Virus record (IMG/VR): IMGVR_UViG_3300042905_000928
Span: 1-63,348 of that record
Source of the DNA: a virus
Lineage: Duplodnaviria; Caudoviricetes
Direction: 5' to 3' (one strand)
DNA: 63,348 nucleotides
Both the position numbers and the translations under genes were made by a program. Below are positions 24,291-40,807 of the stretch, in pieces; the first letter of the stretch is position 1, and every line of letters begins with the position of its first letter. Under the pieces are notes generated by a model. It searched no databases. It was given only the letters and a program-made list of their open reading frames with translations, and was not told where the DNA came from.

Positions 24291-24296
24291 TGAGTC

Positions 24297-24321
24297 TCAA
24301 CTGCTAGGAAAGGAAAATCAA
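24297..24321 (+). promoter_or_regulatory. conserved leader motif copy 1 (TCAACTGCTAG-GAAAGGAAAATCA)
   Basis: Immediately after the -10 box, covers the RBS; recurs at 30956 (+), 39775 (-), 40797 (-). Confidence 0.7.
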
Positions 24322-25221
24322 GTGAAACTAACCAATAAGTATGGTATCCCACAGACGTTTATGAATGTCTTGGAGCGCCCTACATACAGTAAAGGTAAGG
24401 CTAATATCTCAGCGACTCAGCTGTTGAATAGCCCAAAGATCGTTGCTTTGACCAAGAAGTTTGATGAGGAACTGGAACAGGACGTGGCTGACATGATTTG
24501 GTCACTGTTTGGTTCAGCGATGCACAACATTCTTGAACATGGCAAAGATGGTAATCATGTGGTGGAACAGCGTGTCCACGTAGAGCATGACGGTTGGCAC
24601 ATCTCAGGCGCTGTTGACCTACAGATTGTGAATCCTGATGGAACGATTGATATTCGTGACTACAAGACCACATCTGCATGGGCAATGATGAACGAGAAGA
24701 TTGAGTGGGAACATCAACTCAACATCTACGCATGGCTTATTCAGCGTGCAAAGAAGCAAACTGTTAGTTCTGTGGGTATTGTTGGCTTAATCCGTGATTG
24801 GAATCGCCGTGAAGCGGCTACGAAAGAGGGCTATCCAGAAGCTCCAGTCAAAGAAATCCCAATCAAACTGTGGACGTTTGAAGAGCAAGAACAGTTTATC
24901 TCTAAAAGGGTGGCATTGCATAGTGCTTGTGAGTTCGCCATGGAAACAGAGGGCGACTTACCTGACTGCACCCCAACAGAGATGTGGGAAAAGCCAACGG
25001 TTTGGGCTTTGAAGAAAGAAGGAAACATCAAGGCTAAGGCTTTGTATGAGACTGAGGCACTTGCAGAGGAAGCTTTAAAAATTGCCTCTGAGAAAGATCC
25101 CAAGTCTAAGTTCTATGTAGAAGTAAGACCAGGAGAGCGTACTCGCTGTGCGAGCTTCTGTTCTGTTGCCCAATACTGCCAACAGTATCGGGACTATTTA
25201 AATCTTAAGGAGGAAGAATGA
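24322..25221 (+). CDS. PD-(D/E)xK Cas4-like exonuclease
   Basis: ISAT, GSAMH, SGAVDL...DYKT, QLNIY, C-terminal C..FC.V...C; GTG start after AAGGAAAA. Confidence 0.8.
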   Translation: MKLTNKYGIPQTFMNVLERPTYSKGKANISATQLLNSPKIVALTKKFDEELEQDVADMIWSLFGSAMHNILEHGKDGNHVVEQRVHVEHDGWHISGAVDLQIVNPDGTIDIRDYKTTSAWAMMNEKIEWEHQLNIYAWLIQRAKKQTVSSVGIVGLIRDWNRREAATKEGYPEAPVKEIPIKLWTFEEQEQFISKRVALHSACEFAMETEGDLPDCTPTEMWEKPTVWALKKEGNIKAKALYETEALAEEALKIASEKDPKSKFYVEVRPGERTRCASFCSVAQYCQQYRDYLNLKEEE

Positions 25222-25379
25222 AAACTAGACAAGAAATGATTTATGACTTCATGGTCTCTCTGGCTGCAAATGCAGAGTTTTATAAGCAATGGCATGAAGA
25301 CTCAGATGATGATGGGTATGGCAATAATGCTTATGCATTTGCTCAAGAACTTGCAGATGAATATTTAAGGAGCTTATGA
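25218..25379 (+). CDS. hypothetical protein (53 aa)
   Basis: AGGAGG RBS, overlapping start/stop on both sides. Confidence 0.6.
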   Translation: MKTRQEMIYDFMVSLAANAEFYKQWHEDSDDDGYGNNAYAFAQELADEYLRSL

Positions 25380-26104
25380 TGAGTGTATATAAAAAACTAC
25401 AGGATGCACGTATTCAGTTACAGAATACAAAGCTTTCTAAATCAGGGAAGAACAAGTTTGCTGGGTATGAATACTTTGAATTGGGTGACTTCTTGCCAGC
25501 TATTCAGACTATCTGCCAAAAGGTAGGCTTGTGCGGTGTCGTGTCATTCAATACTGACATGGCTTATTTAACCATCTATGACACAGACGGTGGTGACTTT
25601 GCTACATTCACATCCCCTATGTCATCAGCTGCCCTTAAGGGTTGCCATGATGTGCAGAACCTAGGTGCGGTTCAAACCTACCTACGCCGTTATTTATGGA
25701 CTAATGCTTTTGAGATTGTTGAGCATGATGCTTTAGATGCGACCACAGGTAATCAACCAGTAGCAAAGGTAGAGCCTAAGCCAGTAGTTAAAACTGTTAA
25801 CGGATACCCTGTTGATGAGAACTTAAAAATAATCGGACCTAAGCCTATCACTGGCGAGAAGGGTCAGTTCCAAATCGTAGCACCAGGAAAGCCCCAAGCA
25901 GAAGAGGCTATTGCAGGATGGTTGGCTAACATTAAAGATACCGCCAAGGTTCTATTAATGACTGCTTCAACCGAAGAGGATGTCATGCACATCTTTAAGA
26001 AGAACAAGGTGTTGTTTGACACCGTAAAAGCAACCGATGCCGTTTTCTTTAAGGAAATAATGGCGTTATTCACAGAAGCAAAAAACCAACTAGCGAAGGA
26101 GTAA
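25376..26104 (+). CDS. ERF-family ssDNA annealing protein
   Basis: KSGKNKFAGYEYFEL and QNLGAVQTYLRRY signature. Confidence 0.85.
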   Translation: MMSVYKKLQDARIQLQNTKLSKSGKNKFAGYEYFELGDFLPAIQTICQKVGLCGVVSFNTDMAYLTIYDTDGGDFATFTSPMSSAALKGCHDVQNLGAVQTYLRRYLWTNAFEIVEHDALDATTGNQPVAKVEPKPVVKTVNGYPVDENLKIIGPKPITGEKGQFQIVAPGKPQAEEAIAGWLANIKDTAKVLLMTASTEEDVMHIFKKNKVLFDTVKATDAVFFKEIMALFTEAKNQLAKE

Positions 26105-26107
26105 TAC

Positions 26108-26362
26108 ATGGCTTTTGAACAAAAACCAAATAGCGGTGCAATGTTTGTAAACGACCAAAAGAAGGCAGAGAACCACCCAGATTGGCGTGGCGATGTTTTC
26201 TTAGATAAGACATTCATCATTGAACAAATGGATAAATCCAAGGGTTCAATGGTCAAGATTGCTTTGTCAGCTTGGTCTAAACAGGCTAAGTCAGGCAAGG
26301 ACTACCTATCCATATCGGCATCAGAGCCATGGGTTAAAAAAGACGAAGACATTCCATACTAA
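26108..26362 (+). CDS. small ssDNA-binding-like protein
   Basis: HPDWRG...LSAW...GKDYLS and acidic tail DEDIPY. Confidence 0.6.
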   Translation: MAFEQKPNSGAMFVNDQKKAENHPDWRGDVFLDKTFIIEQMDKSKGSMVKIALSAWSKQAKSGKDYLSISASEPWVKKDEDIPY

Positions 26363-26371
26363 GGAGAAACC

Positions 26372-26827
26372 ATGAAACCATCCATTAAAAAAGCTATTTC
26401 AGTAGTCCGCAACACTTTGTTAGAAAACGGCAATCGCCCAACTCACAGCAACGATATTTGCACAAAGCATACAGATTTACCAAGAAGTGAGATTCACTAC
26501 GCATTGCGTGTCATGTGTGAAAAGAAGACTCTATCTCGTGTTAAACAAGGTACTTATGTGCTTACTTTTGCTGACAGACCATTTGATGAGTATGTGCTGA
26601 CTACCAAGAGACGAGCAAAAAAGCCACGCAAGGTTAATCCTGCAATACCTCTTGAGAAACAGTTACAGAAGTGGGATGCTGAAGAGAAAAAGACTGACTG
26701 GCAGGATCTATGTCAGAAGCTACAGAACGCATTGGCTAAAGCTTATGTGGACTGTGACCTGCTAGAAGCCACAGTTGCCGAGCAGAAAGTGGTCATTCGT
26801 TACTTAGAAAACCGTACTGTTCTATGA
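26372..26827 (+). CDS. winged-helix-like hypothetical protein
   Basis: AAGGAG RBS; wHTH-like N-half ending GTY, coiled-coil C-terminus. Confidence 0.5.
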   Translation: MKPSIKKAISVVRNTLLENGNRPTHSNDICTKHTDLPRSEIHYALRVMCEKKTLSRVKQGTYVLTFADRPFDEYVLTTKRRAKKPRKVNPAIPLEKQLQKWDAEEKKTDWQDLCQKLQNALAKAYVDCDLLEATVAEQKVVIRYLENRTVL

Positions 26828-27243
26828 ACAAGGTAAGTTTTGAGGGCGTCAAGGTTGCTATCAAGCAAGATAAGACTGGCTATGTGCTAACGCTTTCTAT
26901 CCACCCTGATGATATTCCTGAGATGCTTCTCAGGGATTTCGTTGGGGCGCGGTATGGCGTGGCCATGATTAGGATTGACGGCAACGAGCAACCGATGAAC
27001 CGAGAAGCTGAGTTTGAAGGTGATAAGCTGGTCCGCATAGCTGGCATGTTCAGCAAGGATGTGGAGTTCTGGAAGTATCTGTATGAGGATTCACAGATAT
27101 TTGAAGAGAACGAAAAGGAAGCCACAGAGTGGTTAAGAACTTACCTGTGTATTCAATCCCGTGCCGAGCTTAAAACCAATGCTCAAGCACAGCAACTTAT
27201 GAAAAAACTAGTTAAGGAATTTAACGAATGGAAAAGAAACTAG
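26824..27243 (+). CDS. hypothetical protein
   Basis: Coupled ORF; GYVLTLSIHPDD and SRAELK motifs. Confidence 0.6.
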   Translation: MNKVSFEGVKVAIKQDKTGYVLTLSIHPDDIPEMLLRDFVGARYGVAMIRIDGNEQPMNREAEFEGDKLVRIAGMFSKDVEFWKYLYEDSQIFEENEKEATEWLRTYLCIQSRAELKTNAQAQQLMKKLVKEFNEWKRN

Positions 27244-27506
27244 TACCGTACTCTGTGTATCTACCAATAGAACATGTTGAGAAGATCAAAAAGTTAGCTA
27301 AGAATCGTAAAGCTTCTGAGCTAATCCGTGATTCAATTATCAACATGTTAGAACATAAAGACATGTTCAAAAGTGGGTACAACAAGGGTATTAAAGATGC
27401 AGCCAAAGTAATCTATGACTGTAAAGAAGCACAAATGATTGCCATCCAGAAGCGTGATTTGGGTGACATTTTGTCTGAACAGATTCAATCATTGGAGCTT
27501 AAATGA
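27228..27506 (+). CDS. ribbon-helix-helix-like hypothetical protein
   Basis: YSVYLP...KASELIRDSI pattern. Confidence 0.5.
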   Translation: MEKKLVPYSVYLPIEHVEKIKKLAKNRKASELIRDSIINMLEHKDMFKSGYNKGIKDAAKVIYDCKEAQMIAIQKRDLGDILSEQIQSLELK

Positions 27507-27724
27507 ATGAAGACCCAACAAGAGATATAGCAATTGAGGTATTTCAGGTGCTGGCTACCAAGGCTGACATGGATACTGCTGTGATTTTGTCTGCTGTGAG
27601 TATTGTCCTGGCTACGATTGCGGTTGAAGCTGGGATGGAAGAGGAAAAGGCAGTTTACGCTTTCCGTAAATCCTATAGCAATGCACAGAGAAGACTGAAG
27701 CGATTGATGAAAGAGGTGCATTGA
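27503..27724 (+). CDS. hypothetical protein
   Basis: GGAG RBS, coupled ORF. Confidence 0.6.
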   Translation: MNEDPTRDIAIEVFQVLATKADMDTAVILSAVSIVLATIAVEAGMEEEKAVYAFRKSYSNAQRRLKRLMKEVH

Positions 27725-27924
27725 TGAATGATGATGACTTGAGAGACTGTTTTGCAATGTTTGCTGTTGCAGGAATGATGGCTCGTGGTGACATCCCACA
27801 CAAGGATATTGCTTACAGGGCTTATAACCTAGCAGATCTTGCCTTAAAAGCTCGTGTCCAGAAAGAAACAGATGAGTCAGCTGGCCTACCAGCGATTAAA
27901 CGGAGAGTTAAAAAGGGTGAATGA
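27721..27924 (+). CDS. small phage protein, LRD.FA..AY..AD..L.AR family
   Basis: Recurrent phage motif. Confidence 0.6.
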   Translation: MMNDDDLRDCFAMFAVAGMMARGDIPHKDIAYRAYNLADLALKARVQKETDESAGLPAIKRRVKKGE

Positions 27925-28066
27925 TCAAAACAAGTGGTGTACGTCATGCCGAATGATGAAGAACCCCATGGGTGGCGAGTGGATTGTTGCTAACAAGGGG
28001 CTTGTTAAACGATGGTCTTGTGCTTCTTGCCTTCAAAGAGCCAAGGAAAGAAAGGGAAAACAATAA
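27917..28066 (+). CDS. small Zn-ribbon protein
   Basis: CxxC...CxxC; GTG start inferred. Confidence 0.5.
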   Translation: MNDQNKWCTSCRMMKNPMGGEWIVANKGLVKRWSCASCLQRAKERKGKQ

Positions 28067-28257
28067 TGGATACAGATATTAAAAATGACAAGGCTTGGAT
28101 TGCTAAGTTAAGAAACTTTTTAATTGTGCTAATGGTTGGATTTTCCATCGGCAGCATAGTGACTAACGCTACATTTACCTACCAATTGCAACAAGACTGC
28201 GACACTATGAAACAGTTCCGTGTTGGTAAGTTAGCCTATACCTGCATAGTCAAATGA
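28066..28257 (+). CDS. small membrane protein
   Basis: One TM helix; coupled ORF. Confidence 0.55.
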   Translation: MDTDIKNDKAWIAKLRNFLIVLMVGFSIGSIVTNATFTYQLQQDCDTMKQFRVGKLAYTCIVK

Positions 28258-28330
28258 GCTGGGCCATATTAATCTGCCTCATCGTGATCGTGTATCGCCT
28301 TGAGTGCATCTTGAAGGAGCTGAGAAAGAA

Positions 28331-28594
28331 ATGAAAAATGAACCAGTAGCTTGGGCTGTATGGGAGGGAAGACCACATGATTTATTTTTTACAAAAGAAG
28401 AAGCAGATGAACTGTGCCGTCTAAAAGGTGGTGATGCTAAATCTATTCCACTCTACACCGCACCAAGAGAATTAAGTGATGAGGAAATAGTAAATTTGTA
28501 TGAATCATTGGAATACAAAAATGCTACAAGTAATGAGAAATATGATGCTATTCAGTTTGCTAGAGCAATACTAAAGAAAGCGAGTGAGAAATGA
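28331..28594 (+). CDS. hypothetical protein (EPVAW...PLY...LSDEEI type)
   Basis: Recurrent accessory phage motif; AAGGAG upstream. Confidence 0.6.
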   Translation: MKNEPVAWAVWEGRPHDLFFTKEEADELCRLKGGDAKSIPLYTAPRELSDEEIVNLYESLEYKNATSNEKYDAIQFARAILKKASEK

Positions 28595-28818
28595 GAGAAG
28601 ACTTTGAAGAGTGGGCGAAAGGTAAAATTTCTTTAGCCAACTATGACGGTGAATACGCCAATCTTGAGTCTCAGATAGCTTGGCAAGCATGGCAACGTTC
28701 GTGGAACATTGCAATCCGTGCGCAAAGACAAAGGGATGAGGCAGAGCTAAACGCCCTCAAGAACAAGATACTAATTGCTAAGGCCGCTTTAACGACTAAG
28801 GTTTTGGGTGCAAGATGA
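28591..28818 (+). CDS. hypothetical protein (FEEW...AWQAWQ type)
   Basis: Coupled ORF, recurrent phage motif. Confidence 0.55.
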   Translation: MREDFEEWAKGKISLANYDGEYANLESQIAWQAWQRSWNIAIRAQRQRDEAELNALKNKILIAKAALTTKVLGAR

Positions 28819-29474
28819 TTCCTAAAATCATTCACATCATCTGGATTGGCGATCAGTCCAAGAAGCCTACCCAGTGCATTGACACTTGGATTAAAAAGAA
28901 CCTTGACTACGAGGTAAGGGTTTGGGGTAACAATCAAGTCCAAAGTGTTAACTGGAAGAACTACCGCCAACTCCATGACATGCTGGCTAAGAAAGACTAC
29001 GCAGGGGCTAGTGACGTAATGCGTTATGAAATCCTCTACGAGCATGGTGGCATCTATGTAGATGCTGATACCTATTGCGTTAAGCCATTAGAAGATTGGT
29101 TGTTAAATTGTCAGGCGTTTGCCTCTTGGGAACAGGAGCTGGTGCGTAACAATCTGATAGCCAATACGGTGCTGGGCAGCGCTCCTGGGGCTGAAGCATT
29201 GAAATTATGTATAGAAGAAGTGGCTACCAAGGACTGCACAGAACAAAAACTGGCATGGATGATTACTGGTCCAATGCTTGTAACAGAGATATTTTTTAAG
29301 AAACAAGCCAATCTAACGGTGTATCCTTCTCATTTCTTTATGCCAGAACATCACTCTGGATACGAAAGTAAAGTTACAGGTCATCACTTTGCTCGGCATC
29401 TGTGGGGATCTGGCACAGGTTACGACAATATGGATGAAAGATTTAGAAATGACACCACAAAATCAACAACGTGA
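28815..29474 (+). CDS. glycosyltransferase, GT32/OCH1-like
   Basis: IPKIIHIIWIG, SDVMRYEILYEHGGIYVDAD. Confidence 0.88.
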   Translation: MIPKIIHIIWIGDQSKKPTQCIDTWIKKNLDYEVRVWGNNQVQSVNWKNYRQLHDMLAKKDYAGASDVMRYEILYEHGGIYVDADTYCVKPLEDWLLNCQAFASWEQELVRNNLIANTVLGSAPGAEALKLCIEEVATKDCTEQKLAWMITGPMLVTEIFFKKQANLTVYPSHFFMPEHHSGYESKVTGHHFARHLWGSGTGYDNMDERFRNDTTKSTT

Positions 29475-29488
29475 AGAAAGAGAGCAAA

Positions 29489-30262
29489 ATGAGCGAAAAC
29501 AACGAGAAACCAACGACTAAATCACCAACATTATTTGTAGCTACACCTATGTACGGTGGTATGTGCATTGGTAACTACGCCGCAGCTCTTATGCAGATGC
29601 CAATGATTGTAAGTAAAGCTGGTATTAAGATGTACTACACCTACATGATGAACGAGAGCCTGATTACCCGTGCCCGTAACAGTTTGGCTTATGATTTCTT
29701 GGCTTCAGATGCTACTCATTTGATGTTTATTGATGCTGACGTTGGGTTTCAACCTAATGACATCGTTGAGATGGTTAAGCGTGACGTGGATATTTGTTGT
29801 GGTTTGTACCCCAAGAAAGAAATTCATTGGCAACGAGTGGCTGATGCGGTAGGCAGAGGCGTGCCAGCTGACCAGTTAAAAGACCATACAGGTACATTCG
29901 TGGTGAACTTGGTTAAAGAAGAACGCCAAGAAGTAAAGATGAATGAATTATTAGAGATTCACAATGGTGGCACAGGCTTTATGTTGATCAAACGTGAAGT
30001 GTTTGAGGCTTTGGCTGATAAAGTGCCTGAATACAACAGTGATATGTATCTAGCCGTAGACACCGTAAGAACACCAAAAATTATTAAAGAATACTTTGCG
30101 ACCAGCATTGACCCTGAATCCAATAACCGCCTGCTATCTGAGGACTACCATTTCTGTAAGTTAGCGCGCAAGCATGGGTTCAAGGTGCATGCTGCGCCAT
30201 GGGTACAGTTATCTCACACTGGAACATACATCTTTAGCGGTGCTTTACAGCGTGTATCGTAA
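29489..30262 (+). CDS. GT-A-fold glycosyltransferase-like protein
   Basis: VATPMY, SLITRARN, LMFIDAD, GTGFMLIKREVF, LSEDYHFC. Confidence 0.75.
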   Translation: MSENNEKPTTKSPTLFVATPMYGGMCIGNYAAALMQMPMIVSKAGIKMYYTYMMNESLITRARNSLAYDFLASDATHLMFIDADVGFQPNDIVEMVKRDVDICCGLYPKKEIHWQRVADAVGRGVPADQLKDHTGTFVVNLVKEERQEVKMNELLEIHNGGTGFMLIKREVFEALADKVPEYNSDMYLAVDTVRTPKIIKEYFATSIDPESNNRLLSEDYHFCKLARKHGFKVHAAPWVQLSHTGTYIFSGALQRVS

Positions 30263-30539
30263 TAAGAAGCTATTGGAGGCTCTGCGTGAGTCTCCATGCC
30301 AACATTGTGGAAAACAAGATGGAACAATTGTTGCAGCGCACAGTAACCAGCTTAGAGATGGCAAAGGCCGTAGCATCAAGGCACATGACTACAGGACGGC
30401 AGCTCTATGCTACTGGTGTCACATGGAACTGGATCAGGGCAAAGACCTATCGAAAGCTGACAGGGAAGAGCTATGGGAAAACGCCCATCGTAAGACGGTA
30501 GGCTGGCTTTTTGAATCAGAAAAACTTACAATTAAATAA
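30252..30539 (+). CDS. HNH-like Zn-binding nuclease (DUF1364/DUF968-like)
   Basis: PCQHCG...AAH...ALCYWCH. Confidence 0.7.
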   Translation: MYRNKKLLEALRESPCQHCGKQDGTIVAAHSNQLRDGKGRSIKAHDYRTAALCYWCHMELDQGKDLSKADREELWENAHRKTVGWLFESEKLTIK

Positions 30540-30607: not shown

Positions 30608-30627
30608 TTGCAAAAAAAATCGGCATT

Positions 30628-30643: not shown

Positions 30644-30658
30644 GACAAACACTATAGG

Positions 30659-30688
30659 TTGACAGGTGTTAAGAATTTCTGCTATATT
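30659..30688 (+). promoter_or_regulatory. sigma70 promoter of candidate sRNA
   Basis: TTGACA (30659-30664), 18 nt ending in extended TGc, TATATT (30683-30688). Confidence 0.75.
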
Positions 30689-30692
30689 TAGT

Positions 30693-30820
30693 GTATCAGT
30701 CCCCTTACTGATAGCCGTCAACCTGATTTTTCCGATTTAGCAGTTGGACTATCTTGACGGCAGCCCTCCAGGTGATCCCCTTCACCCTAAACCCCCAGCT
30801 AATCCCTGGGGGTTTTTCTT
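30693..30820 (+). ncRNA. candidate trans-acting antisense sRNA, four stem-loops
   Basis: Stems TATCAGT/ACTGATA, GCCGTCAA/TTGACGGC, GGTGA/TCACC and terminator AAACCCCCAG/CTGGGGGTTT; no ORF; loops complementary to phage leaders and RBSs. Confidence 0.75.
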
Positions 30821-30920: not shown

Positions 30921-30949
30921 TTGCAATTTATTTTTACTTCATTTAATCT
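30921..30949 (+). promoter_or_regulatory. sigma70 promoter of the replication operon
   Basis: TTGCAA, 17 nt, TAATCT; followed by GAGCCTCAACTGCTAG at the same spacing as the 24262 promoter. Confidence 0.7.
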
Positions 30950-30954: not shown

Positions 30955-31356
30955 CTCAACTGCTAGAAGGAAAAATCAGGAACTGAAACAACTTCCTGAT
31001 GACAATTAGATTACCACCACGCCATTCATGGTGTGAGCTTGTGTCTCTTTGTCACTTTCTTTCTAGCATATGACGTACTCCACACGATAGCAAGAACCTA
31101 CATGGGTTGCGTGGAAGTAAACATAGGCTGATTTCATCACCCGATTTAGCCTCGTAGCCTTAAATGGGGACTACACAAGACGGAGAGCCAAGCGGTGAGA
31201 CCAACTCTCCATCGAATGAACATTAACTTAGGTAGGACTAGCAGTAACTGTGGAGTAGTGTATGGATTCGGAGAGTGTTATATGTGGGTCGGAGTGGTTA
31301 AGCACAACAGATGGTTGGCTTATCACCCTTGGGGGAACTATCAATTGGAGCAATGT
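30955..31356 (+). ncRNA. ~400-nt structured 5' leader / candidate RNA switch
   Basis: Helices 30961-30973/31056-31068, 30975-30982/30993-31000, 31076-31084/31249-31257, 31125-31131/31146-31152; alternative 30959-30966/31238-31245. Confidence 0.6.
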
Positions 31357-31656
31357 ATGAAAAACAAAGAACTTACAGACATAATCCTTGAAGCCATTAC
31401 GGAGCATGGATGTGTCACAACAACACAGATTGCAGACCTTCTCAAAGTTAATTCAGCCACCGCAGCAGGGCGGTTGACTTACCTTAGATCACAGGGTCGC
31501 ATTGTGGGCAAAAGAGCTAATTGGGCATTTAGATTGGAAGATCTAAAGGTCAAGCCCAAACAGCATATCGTTAATCAATCATTCACTGAACTATCAAATA
31601 TCTTTTACAACATAGTTCGCATGGGAGCTACAAATGAAAAAAATCAACATTCTTAA
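31357..31656 (+). CDS. winged-helix DNA-binding protein
   Basis: GGAG RBS; TTTQIADLLKVNSATAAGRLTYLRSQGRI HTH. Confidence 0.65.
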   Translation: MKNKELTDIILEAITEHGCVTTTQIADLLKVNSATAAGRLTYLRSQGRIVGKRANWAFRLEDLKVKPKQHIVNQSFTELSNIFYNIVRMGATNEKNQHS

Positions 31657-34115: not shown

Positions 34116-34942
34116 GATTTGAAGATTTTGCCAAAATCCATGGACTGATCCTACGGGAAGTTACCCCCTTCAAATGGATGGCAACACCAACAGAAGACCA
34201 TCCAAACAAACGCAATGGGCGATACAAGTTCATGGGTGATATAGGATGGGTGCAAAACTGGGCAACCATGGACAAACCAGCCATGTGGAAGACAGAAGAT
34301 CGAAATGCGCTCAATCCAGAGCTGCTGCGACAAAAATCCAATTTTGAGGATGAAAGAGCAAAACTAGCAAAAAACGCTCAATCCAAGGCAGAGTGGATAA
34401 TTTCTCAATCCACCCTTCAAACGCATGAATATCTTGCCAAAAAAGGCTTTCCAGACGAAGAATCCATGGTATGGAATACTGATAAGGGCGACAAGTTAAT
34501 GGTCATACCTATGCGTAAAGGCGGAGAATTGGTAGGGTGTCAGTTGATCAATGAGCAAGGGGAAAAGAAGTTCTTGTATGGTCAGCAGACTAAAGGGGCA
34601 TCCTTCAGGATCGGTGCAAAAGGCATCCCTATACTTTGCGAAGGTCTTGCCACTGGATTGTCGGTCAGGTCGGTAATGCAAGCGAATAAACTCGATTGTG
34701 CTATCTACATTTGCTTTTCCGCAAGCAATGTTCAAGAAGTAAGTCGGCACATCCTCGGTGGGTTCATCATTGCTGATAATGATCCCAACGGAGTCGGAGA
34801 ATCCACTGCTCAAAAAACAGGTAAGCCATATTGGATTTCCGACACAGTTGGAGAAGATTTTAATGACTACCACATAAGAGTAGGCACTTTTAGGGCTAGT
34901 CAATCAATTAAGCCGTTAACTTATAAAAATAAGATTGAGTGA
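34112..34942 (+). CDS. Toprim DNA primase-like protein
   Basis: YLAKKG, CEGLATG, ADND, GEDFNDY. Confidence 0.8.
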   Translation: MRFEDFAKIHGLILREVTPFKWMATPTEDHPNKRNGRYKFMGDIGWVQNWATMDKPAMWKTEDRNALNPELLRQKSNFEDERAKLAKNAQSKAEWIISQSTLQTHEYLAKKGFPDEESMVWNTDKGDKLMVIPMRKGGELVGCQLINEQGEKKFLYGQQTKGASFRIGAKGIPILCEGLATGLSVRSVMQANKLDCAIYICFSASNVQEVSRHILGGFIIADNDPNGVGESTAQKTGKPYWISDTVGEDFNDYHIRVGTFRASQSIKPLTYKNKIE

Positions 34943-35189
34943 TTAGTCGCATAAACTTGGCTTCTATCTCCCTTACTCTTTGTTTTGATAAGCCATACAG
35001 TGATCCACAGCCCTTCAGTGTTTTACCCTTGGCTCTTTCAGACATAATATGCCAGTATTTCTCTCGCAATTCCATCTTTGTGTAGTTGTTATACAGTTGG
35101 CAGAAGTCAGCCATGGAAGGGAAGTCTATAAACACATACCCCCCTTCCGTATAAATTGGCACTTTGCCATTACCCAGTCTTAAATTCAT
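34908..35189 (-). CDS. sigma70 region-4-like HTH protein
   Basis: KTLKGCGSLYGLSKQRVREIEAK; start after AAGGGA. Confidence 0.6.
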   Translation of the reverse strand: MNLRLGNGKVPIYTEGGYVFIDFPSMADFCQLYNNYTKMELREKYWHIMSERAKGKTLKGCGSLYGLSKQRVREIEAKFMRLITQSYFYKLTA

Positions 35190-35190
35190 G

Positions 35191-35364
35191 TCAGTCCCTT
35201 GGATCAATTTCACAAACATCAACAATATCCCAATCATCCTCATAGGTGGCTTCTTCAGAATTAAGATAATCCATAGCCATATCACAGGCTTCATCTGCAT
35301 CACTGGCATCTACAACCACCACTTTGGTGGCAGTTGTAGTCAGTTTAACTTCGTATCTTCTCAT
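35191..35364 (-). CDS. small acidic protein (MRRYEVKL..., 57 aa)
   Basis: GAGGT RBS; below ORF-track cutoff; paralogue pattern V.A.D..EA...A. Confidence 0.6.
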   Translation of the reverse strand: MRRYEVKLTTTATKVVVVDASDADEACDMAMDYLNSEEATYEDDWDIVDVCEIDPRD

Positions 35365-35546
35365 GTTGTTACCTCTTTAACATCAGTTAACCCATCTTCT
35401 GCCCAAACAATGTCTTTTGAGTCGTAGTCTTCTTCGTTGTATCTATCAGATGCAATCTCTTCTGCAATCCCTTCATGCTCTGCTTCAACATCAAAGTAAT
35501 AGACAGTCGTTTCTGTTCTTGGTATACCCACTTTAAACTTCTTCAT
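35361..35546 (-). CDS. small acidic protein, same paralogue family
   Basis: MKKFKV...FDVEAEHEGIAEEIA. Confidence 0.6.
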   Translation of the reverse strand: MKKFKVGIPRTETTVYYFDVEAEHEGIAEEIASDRYNEEDYDSKDIVWAEDGLTDVKEVTT

Positions 35547-35733
35547 TGATACCATCCTTTTCCAGTTGGCTAGCAATGCCATTCAGAAGAATCTGCACAG
35601 CCATGTAAACAAACAAGGCAGATTTACCACGATCTTTAGCTAGGTCATCAACCCTAGCCATGGCAGTTTCAATATCATCAGGCACAAAGAAGATTCCTGA
35701 TTTCATTTTCAATAGTTGTTCAGTTGTTGTCAT
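35533..35733 (-). CDS. hypothetical protein
   Basis: AAGGGGA RBS at 35739-35745. Confidence 0.6.
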   Translation of the reverse strand: MTTTEQLLKMKSGIFFVPDDIETAMARVDDLAKDRGKSALFVYMAVQILLNGIASQLEKDGINEEV

Positions 35734-35881
35734 TTTCTTCCCCTTCCATTTCATCTAAGTAGCACTGTCTTGCTTCTTTATGGAAAGTAACAATAATGTT
35801 ACCTTTACGATCCCATGAAATTACCCAGTCAGCATGACCAAATACCTCTTCGCAATACTCGTCTAGTAAATCGCTATTCAT
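35720..35881 (-). CDS. hypothetical acidic protein (53 aa)
   Basis: Fills gap with overlapping start/stop. Confidence 0.5.
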   Translation of the reverse strand: MNSDLLDEYCEEVFGHADWVISWDRKGNIIVTFHKEARQCYLDEMEGEENDNN

Positions 35882-36168
35882 TCTGAAGCCCATCCAAAAA
35901 ATAAATACTCATCATCTTTAATATGGATGCAACCCGCATCCCCCCATTTGTCATCCACCCTTGAGTCGCAGTCATCAATCAGTTGTTCGGCATACACAAA
36001 GGCATCCAGTCCTTCAGCCAATGGAATGACCACAAAAGAGTTCTTCTCAGCGATAGTCCCAGTGTAGCCACCATGCCCATGCTGATACCTAGCTTCGTAA
36101 ACTAAACTATCAAAGGCTTTCTTGGCAGTCGAACCCAGTCCCACAGTCATAAACACTACTGCTCCCAT
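35878..36168 (-). CDS. hypothetical protein (GHGGYTGTIAEK family)
   Basis: GAGGAG RBS; DKWGDAGCI and FFGWAS motifs. Confidence 0.65.
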   Translation of the reverse strand: MGAVVFMTVGLGSTAKKAFDSLVYEARYQHGHGGYTGTIAEKNSFVVIPLAEGLDAFVYAEQLIDDCDSRVDDKWGDAGCIHIKDDEYLFFGWASE

Positions 36169-36713
36169 TATTCGCACTCCTCATCTGATTCATATTGCAT
36201 AGATATATCCATCTGATCATCAATGTATCTAGGTATGTTCTCTTGCACCCACGCTGAAGTGCATTGCTCAATGTCGTAATACTCTTCTTCGCCATCTATC
36301 CATGCACCACAGAAAGCCATGCCTGATTCGTAGTAATAACCCTTCACTTTGAAGCCAAGGTCAGCCAATACCGCATATGCTTGAGTTGGTGGACTCCAAG
36401 CAGAATCAAAGTAAACAAACATATCTTTCTCGCCACCTTGTGCATGATTATCTCTAGCAGAATCGTAGCCAATGTCCCATTTAGTCCCCCAGTTCTGCAC
36501 TCGCCAGTCCCACCAAGCAGTTTCAGGATCTACTGGATTCTCATTACCCCTAATATGCGGAAAAGTAGGCTTCACTTCCACAGTTTTGTAATCAGGCTCA
36601 GGCACAAGAGTCCCCAAGAATTTGCCTGATTCCCAAGCATCCTTGGCTTTCTTAATCATTTCAGGATCATCATGAGTTAAATACAAGTTGTTATCGCACC
36701 AGTTAGGCATCAT
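36168..36713 (-). CDS. DUF1281/YubB ferredoxin-like domain protein
   Basis: MPNWCDN, WWDWRVQNWGTKWD, FDSAWSPP, YYESGMAFCG. Confidence 0.75.
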   Translation of the reverse strand: MMPNWCDNNLYLTHDDPEMIKKAKDAWESGKFLGTLVPEPDYKTVEVKPTFPHIRGNENPVDPETAWWDWRVQNWGTKWDIGYDSARDNHAQGGEKDMFVYFDSAWSPPTQAYAVLADLGFKVKGYYYESGMAFCGAWIDGEEEYYDIEQCTSAWVQENIPRYIDDQMDISMQYESDEECE

Positions 36714-36859
36714 TCATTCTCCTTAAGTTTATAAATATTAAATACAGATACATCTTGAAAACGCACACAATCATTGAGATACTGGATTAGTGCATCAACC
36801 GCTTCTTCTTCATTCTCCACTTCCAATTCATCTTTAAAAGTAATTTCAAACTTCGGCAT
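36710..36859 (-). CDS. small acidic protein
   Basis: MPKFEITF...EVENEEEA. Confidence 0.55.
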   Translation of the reverse strand: MPKFEITFKDELEVENEEEAVDALIQYLNDCVRFQDVSVFNIYKLKENE

Positions 36860-37043
36860 CTTGATCCACCTTTGCGTATGTTCCAGTAATGTTAGATTCA
36901 AATAGATATAAGTCATCTGCATGAATTCCTTCAAAATGTCTTGTTTCTGCAATATGATGTGCTTCCTCACTATCTTTGGCTTCCATCTCATATGTGTAAA
37001 CCCATTGCTGAGTTTCATGTATTTCAACAGTGAAATTAGGCAT
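36846..37043 (-). CDS. small acidic protein, same paralogue family
   Basis: MPNFTVEIHE...MEAKDSEEAHHIA. Confidence 0.6.
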   Translation of the reverse strand: MPNFTVEIHETQQWVYTYEMEAKDSEEAHHIAETRHFEGIHADDLYLFESNITGTYAKVDQDAEV

Positions 37044-37326
37044 TTTCATTCTCCATAAACTCCAAAACATCAGTCCTAAAGGTATCCAGTGGATAATCCT
37101 CATTGATGATGTCAGTCAATAGATCAAGAAAATCATCTGTAGACATATTGTCGCTACCCAACCAACCTTCAACCATGGTTTTGCTTATGAGTTTCTTCCC
37201 AGTTGCCAAGTAGTAATCTGCTTCCTCTTCAGTTGCAAAGGTATGCAGTATTTCATCCCCATTGACATTGCTATGCCATATGTCCCATTGATCTTCACTT
37301 CTTTGTGATTTATATGTTGTTGCCAT
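37036..37326 (-). CDS. hypothetical acidic protein
   Basis: GAGGAG RBS. Confidence 0.6.
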   Translation of the reverse strand: MATTYKSQRSEDQWDIWHSNVNGDEILHTFATEEEADYYLATGKKLISKTMVEGWLGSDNMSTDDFLDLLTDIINEDYPLDTFRTDVLEFMENENA

Positions 37327-37328
37327 GA

Positions 37329-37496
37329 TTACTCCTCAAATTCGTTAATGTCGTAGAACACTATTCCCCAGTGTTCACCTTTTTCTATTAAATCGGACTG
37401 TTCCATTTCCCTAGCAATTTCTTCTGCTTGTTCAATCGAGTCAGCATCAATCAATACTCTTGTTTCAGTTGAAAAACTGGCAGTAAAACTAGGCAT
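37329..37496 (-). CDS. small acidic protein, same paralogue family
   Basis: MPSF...IDADSIEQAEEIA. Confidence 0.6.
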   Translation of the reverse strand: MPSFTASFSTETRVLIDADSIEQAEEIAREMEQSDLIEKGEHWGIVFYDINEFEE

Positions 37497-37653
37497 TTTC
37501 ATTCTCCTCAATTTGTTTAATTTTCTCTTCTGTTTCTGCTCTTGTAGGGAACATTAGGTAATCTCCAACCTCATCTATGTATTCATCAGCACCATTTGAG
37601 TCCAAGATAATCCAATAGTCCGCTACTATTTCTACTGCTTTCCATTTAGGCAT
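37489..37653 (-). CDS. hypothetical acidic protein
   Basis: AAGGGGA RBS at 37659-37665. Confidence 0.6.
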   Translation of the reverse strand: MPKWKAVEIVADYWIILDSNGADEYIDEVGDYLMFPTRAETEEKIKQIEENENA

Positions 37654-37876
37654 CTTCATCCCCTTCAATATCAACAATCACAAAGCCATCATCTAGGATC
37701 AAACCTACTTCCAACGGCTCTCCATCCATGTAGAAGAAAATGTTTCTATCTTCGTCATCTTCCACTTCATCCCAAGAATCCAATGCAATATCCACCCAAG
37801 TAAAATCCACCTTACTGGCATTTATATAGTCAGGCATATAAAACCCTCGGCAGTGTTTAGTATTGTATTTATTCAT
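37646..37876 (-). CDS. hypothetical acidic protein
   Basis: AAGGGG RBS at 37883-37888. Confidence 0.6.
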   Translation of the reverse strand: MNKYNTKHCRGFYMPDYINASKVDFTWVDIALDSWDEVEDDEDRNIFFYMDGEPLEVGLILDDGFVIVDIEGDEDA

Positions 37877-37886
37877 GTCATACCCC

Positions 37887-38189
37887 TTATTCAAAGTCTT
37901 TACCAACAAACACATTATTTTTACGGAGCAAGGCAATCGCATGGTCGTTTAATGACATTACTCCATCATATTCAACCAGTGTGCGACTGCCCACCTTGTC
38001 AAACTCAAACCAAAGCCCAATGCTTTCAAACAAGTCAGCACTGGGTATATCCCATTCAATAAACCCAGTGTTGTCCTTGCGGAAGTAAAGCTCCAGTGTT
38101 GACTCATGCTCACCTAAGTCCCTAGCACCCCAAGAACCCTCAAGGAATAGCTCAGATTTGACAGTCATAGAATCAATGAGTTCAGCCAT
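37887..38189 (-). CDS. hypothetical protein
   Basis: IGLWF...LVEYDGV motif; tightly packed operon. Confidence 0.6.
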   Translation of the reverse strand: MAELIDSMTVKSELFLEGSWGARDLGEHESTLELYFRKDNTGFIEWDIPSADLFESIGLWFEFDKVGSRTLVEYDGVMSLNDHAIALLRKNNVFVGKDFE

Positions 38190-38191
38190 AA

Positions 38192-38527
38192 TCAATACTC
38201 AGAAGTAAGCATCAATACATTGTCAGTCAGGAAGAATTCATACTCCCCTTCAGGGCAGTCAGTGAAGTCAATATGCTTTGTTTTGATCACATTGCAATCG
38301 CCATCTTCCACAGTGATTGTGGCTTTACCATCAGCCACCACCATCTTGATTGACAGGAAGTAGTCAACCTCTTGCAGTTCAAAGAATTCAGTCGCAACAA
38401 TATCCAAAAACCAGTAGGCACTGGCTTCACGACAGAAGTATTCCACCCCATCCGTATGCACCAGTTTTGGCACAAACATATTGGATTTATAGTATTGCTC
38501 AGTCCCAGTAAATTGATTCAATTCCAT
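38192..38527 (-). CDS. DUF6876-like protein
   Basis: LNQFTGTEQYY, TDGV, AYWFLD, IDFTDCP, LMLTSEY; AAGGGGA RBS. Confidence 0.7.
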   Translation of the reverse strand: MELNQFTGTEQYYKSNMFVPKLVHTDGVEYFCREASAYWFLDIVATEFFELQEVDYFLSIKMVVADGKATITVEDGDCNVIKTKHIDFTDCPEGEYEFFLTDNVLMLTSEY

Positions 38528-38528
38528 G

Positions 38529-38738
38529 TTATTCCCCTTGCATAAGTTCGTTATAAAAAGACCATGTAGAGCTAATACAGTCCCCACAGGCATTAAACAC
38601 ATCTACCACTACTCCATCATCATCCATCTTGATATTGATATAACCACCCGCCTTACCATCCTTATCTACCATGATGGCAAGAGAGTCGTTATCCAATTCA
38701 GCGACAGATAAGTCAAACCCCTTAATATTCGTTTTCAT
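38529..38738 (-). CDS. hypothetical protein
   Basis: GAGGT RBS; DDGVVVDVF. Confidence 0.6.
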   Translation of the reverse strand: MKTNIKGFDLSVAELDNDSLAIMVDKDGKAGGYINIKMDDDGVVVDVFNACGDCISSTWSFYNELMQGE

Positions 38739-38740
38739 AA

Positions 38741-39010
38741 TTACCTCAACACTGGCAAAACAGATTTCTCAGGATGCGAAGTAAACAACGCACCACCATC
38801 ATTGCCTTCATCATCCATGGATGCGAACAACCAAATACCAGTTTCCAACATGAAAGCAACAGGTCTTGAAGTCCAGTCCATGTCCTCTGCTTCTCTATGG
38901 CTTACATAGCGAACCCTAGTTATCTTCTTGCCAAGCAATATGCTACTGGCTTCAGAAGTCCAGTAATCCTCAATCTCCAATTCATTCATCTTTGATAGTT
39001 CAGCAGTCAT
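38741..39010 (-). CDS. hypothetical protein (DDEGNDGGAL family)
   Basis: AAGGGGA RBS at 39016-39022. Confidence 0.65.
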   Translation of the reverse strand: MTAELSKMNELEIEDYWTSEASSILLGKKITRVRYVSHREAEDMDWTSRPVAFMLETGIWLFASMDDEGNDGGALFTSHPEKSVLPVLR

Positions 39011-39566
39011 TTGTTTCCCCTTTTGTAACAGTAAATTCTCTTTCTTTCCATTTAGTGATGCGACATAGCACGCCATTGGTGGCTCTGAAAGCATCCCTAC
39101 CCAAGTAGGACTCATAAGTAAAAGTATCCTCTGAGAAGCTCCCAAAGCTCATTGCGGTGGCAAACTTGACCACATCCCCCATGATCAGTTTTGCCGATTT
39201 CTTCTTCTCTGATTTCTTGCGACAGGCTTCTCTCCAGACCCTTGCATGGTTATTAAATGGTGGAAAGAGAGCATCCAGTTTATCTAGCAGTTTCTTAGGT
39301 GCATCATAGTAATAAGGATGAGCAGTTTCACCCATCTCTTTGTAGTAAAGCCAATCATCCTCTTTGCGAGTCAGGATAATCATGGCTTCTGCTAAGATAA
39401 TCCCAGTTGTCTTATCTTGCACCTTGTGGATGCCATACGCAGTAGTCCCACGCATTGATACATCCGTTAATTCCCACTTGTGAGTATCAGACTCACTTGT
39501 GAATTCACGCACCAACCAGTCTTTAGTCGGCAGTGAGTCAAACTTTTGCGAACCAGTCCATCCCAT
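39000..39566 (-). CDS. DUF6927-like protein
   Basis: MGWT, YKEMGETAHPYYYDAP, WREAC; AAGGGGA RBS. Confidence 0.7.
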   Translation of the reverse strand: MGWTGSQKFDSLPTKDWLVREFTSESDTHKWELTDVSMRGTTAYGIHKVQDKTTGIILAEAMIILTRKEDDWLYYKEMGETAHPYYYDAPKKLLDKLDALFPPFNNHARVWREACRKKSEKKKSAKLIMGDVVKFATAMSFGSFSEDTFTYESYLGRDAFRATNGVLCRITKWKEREFTVTKGETNDC

Positions 39567-39576
39567 GTTATTCCCC

Positions 39577-39765
39577 TTAATGAGTTAAGTTAGCGTAATG
39601 CACGCCATGTTCAGCACATACCTTGACGAAGAAATCATCCTTCTTCAACGCACCAGTCATAGCGGATGCAATCTCTCTTGCAGTCCGATAAGGCATGGCG
39701 TTTTCTAAATGCACCCTAGCGATTGCTTTAGGCACAGGCTTTGAATTGATATACCACTGAATCAT
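39577..39765 (-). CDS. hypothetical protein
   Basis: AGGAG RBS preceded by the leader motif. Confidence 0.6.
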   Translation of the reverse strand: MIQWYINSKPVPKAIARVHLENAMPYRTAREIASAMTGALKKDDFFVKVCAEHGVHYANLTH

Positions 39766-39774
39766 TTGTATCTC

Positions 39775-39785
39775 CTAGCAGTTGA
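39775..39785 (-). promoter_or_regulatory. conserved leader motif copy 3 (TCAACTGCTAG)
   Basis: Starts 5 nt 3' of the hammerhead cut site and overlaps the RBS. Confidence 0.7.
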
Positions 39786-39877
39786 CTAAGACTGGATGCA
39801 ATTTGCGGACTCATGCCAACAGGCAATTTGCGGACTCATGCACCCAGTTTCGGGGATTCACCCCTCATCAGTTAGTC
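39784..39877 (-). ncRNA. type I hammerhead ribozyme
   Basis: GACUAA-CUGAUGA-GGGG/CCCC-GAAA-CUGGGUGCA/UGCAUCCAG-UC-UUAGUC; GUC cut after 39790. Confidence 0.9.
39798..39841. repeat. 19-bp direct repeat, two copies
   Basis: GCAATTTGCGGACTCATGC at 39798-39816 and 39823-39841. Confidence 0.95.
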
Positions 39878-40039
39878 TTTTTCTAGCTCGCAGTGCATGA
39901 AGAACATAAAGCAAAGACCAACAGTGGATGCAATCAAAGTAAAGATATACAGTGGTGCGGGATTCTCTGATACAACATAGATAGAGAGCATAAACAGACC
40001 AAAGATACCAAGGTTTAAAAAGTAAGCTAAGTGTTTCAT
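39872..40039 (-). CDS. small 2-TM membrane protein
   Basis: Two hydrophobic helices; AAGGGGA RBS at 40045-40051. Confidence 0.6.
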   Translation of the reverse strand: MKHLAYFLNLGIFGLFMLSIYVVSENPAPLYIFTLIASTVGLCFMFFMHCELEKD

Positions 40040-40049
40040 CATCATCCCC

Positions 40050-40325
40050 TTAAAAAGTTTTAACCCAAATGCGATTAGCATCAGCGAAGTCGTAGATTGT
40101 GTCTAGCAGATAGTCAGCATCTTCAATGTAGTCAGTCCATGCGAGTTCATCTACTGCATCTTCAAAGTTGCTGAAGTAAATGTAGTCAGCAGTTTTAGGA
40201 TTAGCATCAATGAATGATTTAAACGCTTGGTGCAAACAGGTAAGCATTTCATGACCATCAATATCGTCATTCTCATACTTGGCATATAGGTCAGCCAAGT
40301 CAATCTCATGTTTCCAGTTAGCCAT
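40050..40325 (-). CDS. hypothetical acidic protein (IYDFADANRIWV family)
   Basis: GGGAG RBS. Confidence 0.65.
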   Translation of the reverse strand: MANWKHEIDLADLYAKYENDDIDGHEMLTCLHQAFKSFIDANPKTADYIYFSNFEDAVDELAWTDYIEDADYLLDTIYDFADANRIWVKTF

Positions 40326-40327
40326 GA

Positions 40328-40519
40328 TTATTTCTCCCAGTTAGCAAGCATGAATTCAATCTCTCTGAATTGTGCTTCTGATAAGTTGATGTAATTAGTC
40401 TTACCTAATGCGGATTTGATTTGCATACGGATTTGGAAGGTATCGCCCAGTGACTCAATGACGGCATCAGTTGGCAACACTTTCCAAAACTGGTTACAGA
40501 TATAAGTTTCTTGATTCAT
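40328..40519 (-). CDS. hypothetical protein
   Basis: AAGGGGA RBS at 40525-40531. Confidence 0.6.
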   Translation of the reverse strand: MNQETYICNQFWKVLPTDAVIESLGDTFQIRMQIKSALGKTNYINLSEAQFREIEFMLANWEK

Positions 40520-40536
40520 AAGTTTCCCCTTTATTT

Positions 40537-40587
40537 GTCAATGACCCATCACTGGGTTTCGGCTATTGAAGCCATCATCAGATTGAC
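40537..40587 (-). ncRNA. type I hammerhead ribozyme
   Basis: GUCAAU-CUGAUGA-U-GGCU/AGCC-GAAA-CCCA(GUGA)UGGG-UC-AUUGAC; GUC cut after 40543. Confidence 0.9.
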
Positions 40588-40787
40588 TGAGTAAAACGCA
40601 CCTTTATATCTATTAGGTTTTGAATGTTATCTAATGCTTTAGGTAGATCAAACTTTGCTTCAGATAACAATTCCAATATATCCCCATCTAACCAGTATTC
40701 ATTAACTACATCCCAGTGTTGTCTTTCTCTAGCAATCATACGGACTGCACCGATTAACATCATTTCGTCAGCATCTTTTGTAGTCAT
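40578..40787 (-). CDS. hypothetical protein, first gene of leftward operon
   Basis: TAGGGGA RBS preceded by leader-motif variant. Confidence 0.6.
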   Translation of the reverse strand: MTTKDADEMMLIGAVRMIARERQHWDVVNEYWLDGDILELLSEAKFDLPKALDNIQNLIDIKVRFTQSI

Positions 40788-40788
40788 C

Positions 40789-40807
40789 TTTTTCCCCTAA
40801 CAGTTGA
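40789..40807 (-). promoter_or_regulatory. conserved leader motif copy 4 (TCAACTGTTAG-GGGAAAAA)
   Basis: One C>T change relative to the other copies; covers the RBS. Confidence 0.6.

Follow-up and report, generated by a model that had tools for sequence, protein, structure and literature searches.

A candidate antisense small RNA that covaries with a replication leader in uncultured lake phages

Introduction

The DNA considered here, called the window, is the complete IMG/VR virus record IMGVR_UViG_3300042905_000928 of 63,348 bases (Duplodnaviria; Caudoviricetes). It contains four copies of an 11-base motif, TCAACTGYTAG, and an intergenic gene predicted to encode a small RNA (sRNA) that displays the complement of the motif in a loop. 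A sequence-only reading of the window had taken the motif for the conserved 5' end of four early transcripts, all complementary to this sRNA. Comparison with relatives now singles out the copy at 30956 (site 2), which lies at the predicted 5' end of the replication-operon leader and very probably pairs with the sRNA. The three other copies (sites 1, 3 and 4) are of less certain meaning. To our knowledge, regulation of a phage's own genes has been established for only a few phage sRNAs. The classic examples, P1/P7 c4, P4 CI, P22 sar and lambda OOP, belong to temperate phages.

The sRNA gene

The elements of the locus are compiled in Table 1. The sRNA gene has the marks of a trans-encoded sRNA, since it is intergenic and has its own predicted promoter and intrinsic terminator. 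The promoter is the best sigma-70-like match in 23500-42500 (11/12 with TG) and its -10 block, TGCTATATTTAGTG, is identical across seven contigs. The terminator, with 10 pairs, lies ~100 nucleotides (nt) past the promoter; both expression and transcript ends are predictions. The fold energy of the sRNA is -46.8 kcal/mol (z = -6.5), a value equalled by none of 200 shuffles, and no open reading frame (ORF) of at least 50 amino acids (aa) was found within the gene.

Table 1. Features of the sRNA locus, the motif sites and the gene blocks (positions in the window, except for RF02932)
Feature	Position	Strand	Description
sRNA promoter	30659..30688	+	TTGACA, 18 nt, TGcTATATT (extended -10)
sRNA gene	30693..~30817-30822	+	~125-130 nt; predicted ends
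sRNA structure			5' hairpin 30695-30712; loop-closing stem 30714-30721 with 30754-30761; third hairpin; terminator 30789-30815, then T run
sRNA variable (specificity) module	30722..30733	+	CCTGATTTTTCC; 12/12 Watson-Crick with 30969-30980
sRNA constant module	30738..30747	+	TAGCAGTTGG; complementary to motif, core TAGCAG
Leader promoter	30921..30949	+	TTGCAA, 17 nt, TAATCT, ending 6 nt before motif
Site 2	30956..30980	+	Motif 30956-30966, AA, variable half GGAAAAATCAGG 30969-30980; predicted leader 5' end
Leader hairpin	30975..31000	+	ATCAGGAA, loop CTGAAACAAC, TTCCTGAT; 5' arm overlaps sRNA-binding site
Internal anti-sequence	31056..31068	+	TTTCTTTCTAGCA; pairs in cis with 30962-30974, 13 bp, one G-U
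Rest of untranslated leader	31069..31356	+	RF02932 in relatives; unrelated sequence in window
First operon gene (probable)	31357..31656	+	~99-aa small winged-helix protein; Shine-Dalgarno GGAG 31347-31350
Site 1	24262..24324	+	Promoter TTGACA-17-TAATAT 24262-24290; motif 24297-24307; Shine-Dalgarno/purine tract; GTG 24322 of exonuclease/Erf operon
Site 3	39763..39785	-	Motif 39775-39785; Shine-Dalgarno GGAG; ATG 39765 of 62-aa ORF; after hairpin
Site 4	40785..40871	-	Motif variant TCAACTGTTAG 40797-40807 (T variant); ATG 40787 of 69-aa ORF
RF02932 in relatives	L005:7802-7926; L008:1917-2033; L087:3940-4060; L090:6231-6347; L119:4733-4853; L019:8615-8737
Recombination block		rightward	Exonuclease 24322, Erf 25376, HNH endonuclease 30174
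Replication block		rightward	Small winged-helix protein, ParB-like 31634, helicase 32640, primase 34112
Block of small ORFs	34908-40787	leftward
Structural block	from 41087		Wraps round to 3934-aa polyvalent protein at 11986-23790

The complement of the motif, pointed out in the sequence-only reading, is real and lies inside a stem-closed loop. Closed by GCCGTCAA/TTGACGGC, this loop reads CCTGATTTTTCC-GATT-TAGCAGTTGG, in which a short spacer separates the variable from the constant module. The constant module is complementary to TCAACTGCTA with a terminal G-U pair, and its TAGCAG is unchanged in 11/11 aligned sRNAs. Two covarying pairs occur in the 5' hairpin (11 sequences). On a MAFFT alignment, RNAalifold recovered only the 5' hairpin and the terminator, because the variable module puts the central stem out of register. 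In a scan of the window the sRNA matched no Rfam family at the gathering threshold (the only match, to NsiR1 with E = 0.73, is at chance level), and no description of it was found in the published literature. To judge from its sequence, this unannotated sRNA is a new family in uncultured lake phages.

Covariation of the sRNA loop with the replication leader

In a genome-wide duplex scan, site 2 is the top non-self match of the sRNA, at about -36 kcal/mol (-35.5 to -36.1; z = -7.2) against a background mean of -11.7 +/- 3.4 kcal/mol. The target is bipartite, with the motif as invariant half and a hypervariable half downstream. The promoter in front of it was read by eye from the sequence and is absent from the list of a sigma-70 consensus scan of 23500-42500, a scan that returned 26 promoter-like sites versus 38.9 in shuffles, i.e. 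fewer than chance. In the form TTGTTGCAA-N15-TTTAATCT, this promoter is kept in every sRNA-bearing contig recovered.

Pattern scans yielded 18 sRNA-bearing IMG/VR contigs. To these a covariance model added L026, L010 and L014, three of 76 helicase-relative loci that the patterns had missed, and a minimal form in L027 was recognized by eye. Ten different variable halves occur among these relatives, each matching its own leader: the sRNA module 5' of the core is unrelated between lineages, and the leader past TTGTTGCAA-N15-TTTAATCT matches it in every one. Six cognate duplexes have energies of -31.7 to -38.8 kcal/mol, whereas non-cognate combinations average -20.3 and reach -27.0 at best. In an 8x8 test from which the constant core was excluded, the cognate helix (9-14 bp) was the longest in its row and column in 8/8 cases, with a non-cognate mean of 6.0 and maximum of 11. 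Two additional cognate variants are found in L026 (9 bp + 7 bp) and L010/L014 (14/16).

The constant half shows compensatory change as well. In L119 the pair TCAAC/GUUGA has become TTAAC/GUUAA, and in L010/L014 CUGCUA/UAGCAG has become CCGCUA/UAGCGG. In the L008/L087/L090 clade, site 2 lacks CAAC and the sRNA GUUG has drifted too. Some cognate helices contain G-U pairs; a strand test of G-U versus A-C gave 8 versus 9 over all kept runs, off-register helices included, and 5 versus 1 in 17 in-register helices, a choice of helices made by judgement and not decisive.

Comparison of the sequences directly shows the complementarity and how it covaries, together with the signal of RNA structure and the layout of the locus, and the complementarity is backed by compensatory change, as expected for a trans-encoded sRNA. 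RNA-RNA recognition at the 30956 copy, preferred over a DNA operator in the sequence-only reading, is strongly supported by this covariation. That preference does not extend with the same force to the other three copies, which share only a 10-13 bp seed with the sRNA.

The motif at sites 1, 3 and 4

Over the whole record, TCAACTGYTAG has four copies and no more, versus 0.08 expected, and 0/100 dinucleotide shuffles reach four. The motif is enriched, and the copies lie exactly where the sequence-only reading had placed them, each in the sense orientation of its downstream gene. Three precede start codons at ribosome-binding regions (sites 1, 3 and 4), the C>U substitution of site 4 keeps pairing with the sRNA as G-U, and the two rightward copies have equal spacing from their -10 boxes (TAATAT-6 nt-TCAACTG and TAATCT-6 nt-TCAACTG). 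This fixed spacing is limited to sites 1 and 2 in the window; among the promoter-linked copies examined in clades A and C, 8/8 sit 6 nt after the -10 box. The idea of a 5'-end motif on four transcripts can apply, at most, to sites 1 and 2 and possibly to site 4. Site 4 has alternative promoters, TTGACA-18-GAAAAT (40871-40842) and an extended -10 TGtTATATG, which would put the motif at +28 or ~+5. The consensus scan of 23500-42500 turned up no acceptable sigma-70 promoter for site 3. Many within-operon genes of the relatives have the core CTGCTAGG(AG) in front of them, after hairpins and overlapping the Shine-Dalgarno sequence.

The shared seed lies next to or over the Shine-Dalgarno sequence at all three sites. 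The site-1 duplex, at -28.9 to -30.0 kcal/mol, ranks third in the genome-wide scan, and the core is retained in its orthologues in L005 and L090. Site 3 is identical in L005. Family-wide, the shared element reduces to CTGCTAGG(AG), and every sRNA variant can form at least 10 contiguous pairs with ribosome-binding sites of the CTGCTAGG type. In the L008, L087, L090, L119 and L026 genomes this core stands before at least four genes of the leftward block, often after hairpins. A partial second copy of the motif, CTCAACTGGT, is present at 24272-24281 (+) within the site-1 promoter spacer, and is not kept in the orthologous promoter of L005.

Four observations favour secondary targeting by the constant module. 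Firstly, the core of the sRNA stays fixed beside a module that is replaced between lineages. Secondly, the minimal sRNA of L027 displays only CCUCCUAGCAGUGG, and a matching CCACUGCUAGGAG site is present in L027. Thirdly, CTGCT directly precedes AGGAG in 16/99 sites from six sRNA-bearing loci, and is outside the six commonest 5-mers in that place at 775 sites from the other 76 loci. Fourthly, L010/L014, in which the core has drifted, have no repeated CTGCTAGG ribosome-binding sites.

Other observations weigh against it. The association of motif and sRNA, including all four points just listed, is confounded by shared descent. Site 3 (-21.8 kcal/mol) and site 4 (-18.7 kcal/mol) are 2-3 standard deviations from the mean and fall outside the top 15. 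Seeds of nine bases to the whole sRNA loop are not enriched (12 loci versus 11.2 in shuffles), and the 9-mer CAACTGCTA has two extra copies inside late coding regions, at 6692-6700 (+) and 59835-59843 (+). Foreign sRNAs fit the secondary sites as well as or better than the own sRNA: for L090-type sites, the helix measures 10 bp with the own sRNA and 12-16 bp with that of L008, and L090-type sRNAs (CAGAUUGG) mismatch the conserved AAC of their own sites. Finally, pairing of the purine tracts with UGAUUUUUCC of the sRNA, part of the original proposal, shows no covariation: L005 keeps GGAAAAATCA and GGAAAGGAAAAT at its secondary sites, and its sRNA has CCUAGGCAUCC instead of the U-tract. Since tract pairing is not conserved and foreign sRNAs fit equally, the purine tracts are best read as Shine-Dalgarno sequences. 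On this evidence, sites 1, 3 and 4 could equally well be real targets of the sRNA or not.

The rival explanation that gains most from these facts confines the sRNA to the replication leader and sees in the motif at sites 1, 3 and 4 an RNA element that works without the sRNA, namely a ribosome-binding cassette (CUGCU + AGGAG) common to these sites and acting as translation enhancer, processing site or site for an RNA-binding protein; its match to the sRNA would be incidental, through site 2. The lack of preference for the own sRNA, the weak duplex energies at sites 3 and 4, a conserved AAC upstream of the core that L090-, L135- and L087-type sRNAs leave unmatched, and a clade B core at fixed distance from many start codons, after hairpins, all agree with such a cassette. 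Against it, no other partner for CUGCU is known, motif and sRNA co-occur, the minimal L027 sRNA carries this module alone, and an extra constraint would be needed to keep UAGCAG invariant beside a module that fully turns over. The cassette is thus a possible but doubtful alternative to secondary targeting by the sRNA.

Some features of these regions stand apart from the question of targeting. The CAACTGCTA 9-mer has five sense copies in total, well above the ~0.5 expected, and the two late copies are probably due to chance. Upstream of site 3, a hairpin loop contains two copies of a 19-bp sequence, GCATGAGTCCGCAAATTGC, directly repeated at a 25-bp period (39841-39823 and 39816-39798, -). The distant relative G002 has the doubled element too, ahead of a motif site, and the L005 hairpin lacks it; the element may be a protein-binding or mobile mini-element. 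In the L008/L090 clade (L008, L091 and L125; e.g. L008:11395, 10538 and 8666, -), a repeated cassette precedes the motif-bearing ribosome-binding sites. It consists of a GC-rich hairpin followed by a near-palindrome of the GATTGTnATTCnnCAATC type, and looks like a mobile or processed intergenic unit.

The replication leader and its competing structures

The operon predicted to begin at site 2 encodes the replication proteins. Its first gene was called as a 153-aa ORF from 31195, but the N-terminal 54 residues look non-coding, and the protein probably starts at ATG 31357. This start makes the untranslated leader ~400 nt long. Matches to helix-turn-helix (HTH) domains (residues 62-111 of the 153-aa ORF) are weak and all below Pfam cut-offs.

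Two structures involve the bases to which the sRNA would bind. The first is the leader hairpin. In L005, L007 and L119 the arms of this hairpin differ in step with the variable module, and its loop is conserved. The second is the cis helix formed with the internal anti-sequence. Equivalent helices, altered along with the variable module, are found in L007 (16 bp), L119 (14), L008 (11), L135 (10) and L005 (8). This cis pairing suggests that the leader is a switch governed by competition for its 5' end. The suggestion is tempered by two facts: the helix is weak in L087 and L090, i.e. in 2/8 variants, and the cognate cis helix is the longest in its row in only 4/8.

Directly 3' of the cis anti-sequence, six relatives (L005, L008, L087, L090, L119 and L019) carry RF02932, the Betaproteobacteria-1 RNA, at 86.8-98.3 bits (gathering threshold 49.4 bits). 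RF02932 has no match in the window or in L007, where unrelated sequence takes that place. The main text of Weinberg et al. 2017 (PMC5737381), which introduced 224 motifs, makes no mention of RF02932 or its function as far as that text goes, and no function of Betaproteobacteria-1 was found in the published literature. Its presence in replication leaders hints at a betaproteobacterial host and at a replication-linked role.

Further observations concern the same region. A leader segment at 31118-31152 (+) holds CTGATTTCATCACCCGATTTAGCC, which resembles the sRNA loop CCTGATTTTTCCGATTTAGCAG. The segment is the same in the L007 alignment, though the sRNA module of L007 differs. Either a relic or the origin of the variable module in the window may be seen here. 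L005 and L007 have an extra motif-bearing promoter ~1 kb downstream of site 2 that the window is without.

The competition between sRNA and cis helix leaves room for regulation of either sign, and displacing the cis helix could activate rather than repress. According to an activator model, capture of the 5' end would prevent the helix 30962-30974 with 31056-31068 and thereby open the leader for expression or for an RNA-primed replication function. Competition for the same bases fits this model, and mRNAs can be stabilized by pairing at their extreme 5' end. However, a duplex of ~24 bp is a typical substrate of RNase III, and the fast diversification of a private module would be more readily understood if the sRNA were a repressor that keeps relatives out. 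An activator as formulated here is improbable, and for the sign of regulation in general the chances of repression rather than activation look evenly balanced.

DNA-level alternatives

Instead of an RNA target, TCAACTGYTAG might be an operator, recognized as double-stranded DNA at +1 of early promoters by some phage protein, e.g. the winged-helix product of 31357-31656, the copy in the sRNA gene being another operator. Such an operator would fit the constant position of the motif, 6 nt past the -10 box, at sites 1 and 2 and in orthologues, and a concerted change of all copies would also fit an altered protein specificity. However, the 11-mer is asymmetric rather than palindromic and always in mRNA sense, and in relatives it tracks start codons of internal genes and not promoters. 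No HTH_3 or S24 repressor was found among the phage proteins, and the winged-helix matches are below cut-off. Ten covarying variable modules, the G-U pairs and the same-strand cis partner would all be left unexplained. An operator is unlikely at sites 1, 3 and 4, and very improbable as an account of the motif as a whole. A DNA-level inverted repeat made of the sRNA loop and site 2, e.g. an invertible promoter segment or an origin cruciform, has arms 200-230 bp apart that flank a promoter beside replication genes, but is scarcely credible given that no tyrosine or serine recombinase was found in the phage, that the arms are bipartite with unequal spacers, that a third same-strand partner covaries, that one arm belongs to the loop of a conserved hairpin flanked by promoter and terminator and, as weak evidence, that inversion joints of 30750-30955 are not reported in mapped metagenome contigs.

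Genomic setting

A megablast search with the 24000-32000 region of the phage found no near-identical record among 50,697 phage records. The closest isolates by large terminase (phage 023Pt_psg01, Pelagibacter phage HTVC027P and phage DSL-LC04) share only 54-57% identity with it in this protein, and lake-water metagenomes contain near-identical DNA. No integrase, resolvase, S24 peptidase, HTH_3 or ParA was found among the phage proteins, and no lysogeny genes were found in the phage. Bacterial genomes scanned for the 3' half of the sRNA gave two unrelated matches (Peptostreptococcus and an Elusimicrobium metagenome-assembled genome) and no sign of prophage copies.

The HNH endonuclease gene (30174-30539, +) lies directly upstream of the sRNA gene. 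The 3934-aa protein (+) combines a Strawberry-notch-type helicase (AAA_34/Helicase_C_4) with LPD38 domains; its ART-PolyVal match is sub-threshold (30.2 bits, cut-off 31.2). An assignment as N4-like virion RNA polymerase was considered and rejected, the domains being those of a polyvalent protein. Early transcription is therefore assumed to rely on the host sigma-70 polymerase.

Other RNA-like elements occur in relatives. In distant helicase relatives, a different element of ~110-130 nt follows a sigma-70-like promoter (L011:2870-3020, L047:6030-6180 and L056:2160-2345); it is closed by an 11-18 bp terminal stem, behind which lies a T run. A conserved block, CCGTCAGGGCGCGTTAGC..., comes after the element in L047 and L056. 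L019 and L021 have yet another sRNA-like gene, with CCUCCUAG, upstream of RF02932.

Proposed mechanism and significance

We propose that a phage-encoded antisense sRNA (30693-30817) acts in trans on a bipartite target, of which the 11-mer is the invariant half. Transcribed from its own sigma-70-type promoter to its own terminator, the sRNA would present ~26 nt of antisense sequence in a stem-closed loop. Its primary target would be the first ~25 nt of the long untranslated leader of the winged-helix/ParB-like/helicase/primase operon, 230 bp downstream on the same strand. By competing with the internal leader segment for this 5' end, the sRNA should refold the leader upon binding, and the replication module would be down-regulated through an RNase III-sensitive duplex or through the altered leader folding. 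The hypervariable module would give each phage lineage a private specificity, in the manner of heteroimmunity or plasmid incompatibility. At the three other copies, the constant seed at early-gene Shine-Dalgarno sequences would make plausible secondary targets for translational shut-off, although the sign of regulation and any effect at these sites are predictions. In a comparison of 24000-41200 with contigs of metatranscriptome X24 and of three lake DNA runs, X24 has no cover over 30314-30887 and is silent on the expression and ends of the sRNA. Taken as a whole, with sRNA, leader capture, repression, private specificity and secondary seeds together, the proposal has slightly better than even chances of being right.

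A bolder, tentative and rather improbable extension sees in these virulent-looking lake podophages a system of incompatibility or exclusion based on RNA only. The sRNA and the cis anti-sequence would contend for the 5' end of a structured leader, mostly one with RF02932; the outcome would set replication output and exclude relatives of the same specificity, and the invariant half would serve as a private anti-Shine-Dalgarno seed silencing an early regulon. If true, this would bring RNA-based heteroimmunity outside temperate phages and give Betaproteobacteria-1 a biological context.

Several points make the system worth attention. The sRNA target is defined by unusually clean natural covariation over ten specificity variants, which points to RNA-level control of the replication module and suggests a diversifying 'private key' logic like that of immunity or incompatibility groups. 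An orphan Rfam motif, RF02932, is placed in a defined regulatory setting, and the natural variants constitute a ready-made orthogonal set of sRNA/leader pairs. As far as sequence comparison goes, this is phage antisense control in a new form, with strong comparative support for one target.

Comparison with known systems

P22 sar and lambda OOP are phage sRNAs that repress phage genes by pairing, as outlined in PMC12197685. They differ from the present sRNA in overlapping their target genes on the opposite strand, and have no separate variable module and no multi-site motif.

P1/P7 c4 is nearer. It is cut out of the same transcript as its target. It controls an antirepressor in a temperate plasmid-prophage, whereas here the sRNA has its own predicted promoter and terminator and is directed at the 5' end of a replication leader. 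What is targeted here is not the ribosome-binding site of a temperate phage's antirepressor operon, but the leader of a winged-helix/ParB-like/helicase/primase operon. The likeness lies in the design. In the account of PMC12197685 (citing Citron and Schuster 1990), c4 of P1/P7 (immI) is a small trans-acting phage antisense RNA encoded just upstream of its target, which acts through short, separate complementary segments and blocks the region of the ribosome-binding site. In the same account, differences in these segments set specificity between relatives, a property mirrored here by the covarying segments. The Rfam scan of the window gave no match to a c4 family.

P4 CI offers a second parallel. 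In this RNA-based immunity, the replication (alpha) operon is silenced by a small RNA that pairs with sites in its nascent leader. CI RNA is a processing product of that very leader and works through premature termination. Both systems thus direct a small RNA at the leader of a replication operon; here, however, the sRNA is a separate gene, and no attenuator terminator was identified in the leader.

The third parallel comes from plasmid copy control. ColE1 RNA I/RNA II and R1 CopA/CopT are cis-encoded, fully complementary countertranscripts, and their specificity variants define incompatibility. The phage sRNA differs in that it and its target are transcribed from the same strand, 230 bp apart, with partial complementarity only (two helices of 10-14 bp), and in that the element is a phage. 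In the plasmids, a loop-displayed antisense RNA acts on the 5' part of a replication leader or preprimer, and its binding competes with leader folding. The loop of the phage sRNA may be directed at its leader in a similar way, and the operon content together with the competing cis helix would fit a replication-leader target of this kind. Collectively, P1/P7 c4, P4 CI and the plasmid copy-control RNAs appear to be the closest analogues of the sRNA and leader pair described here.

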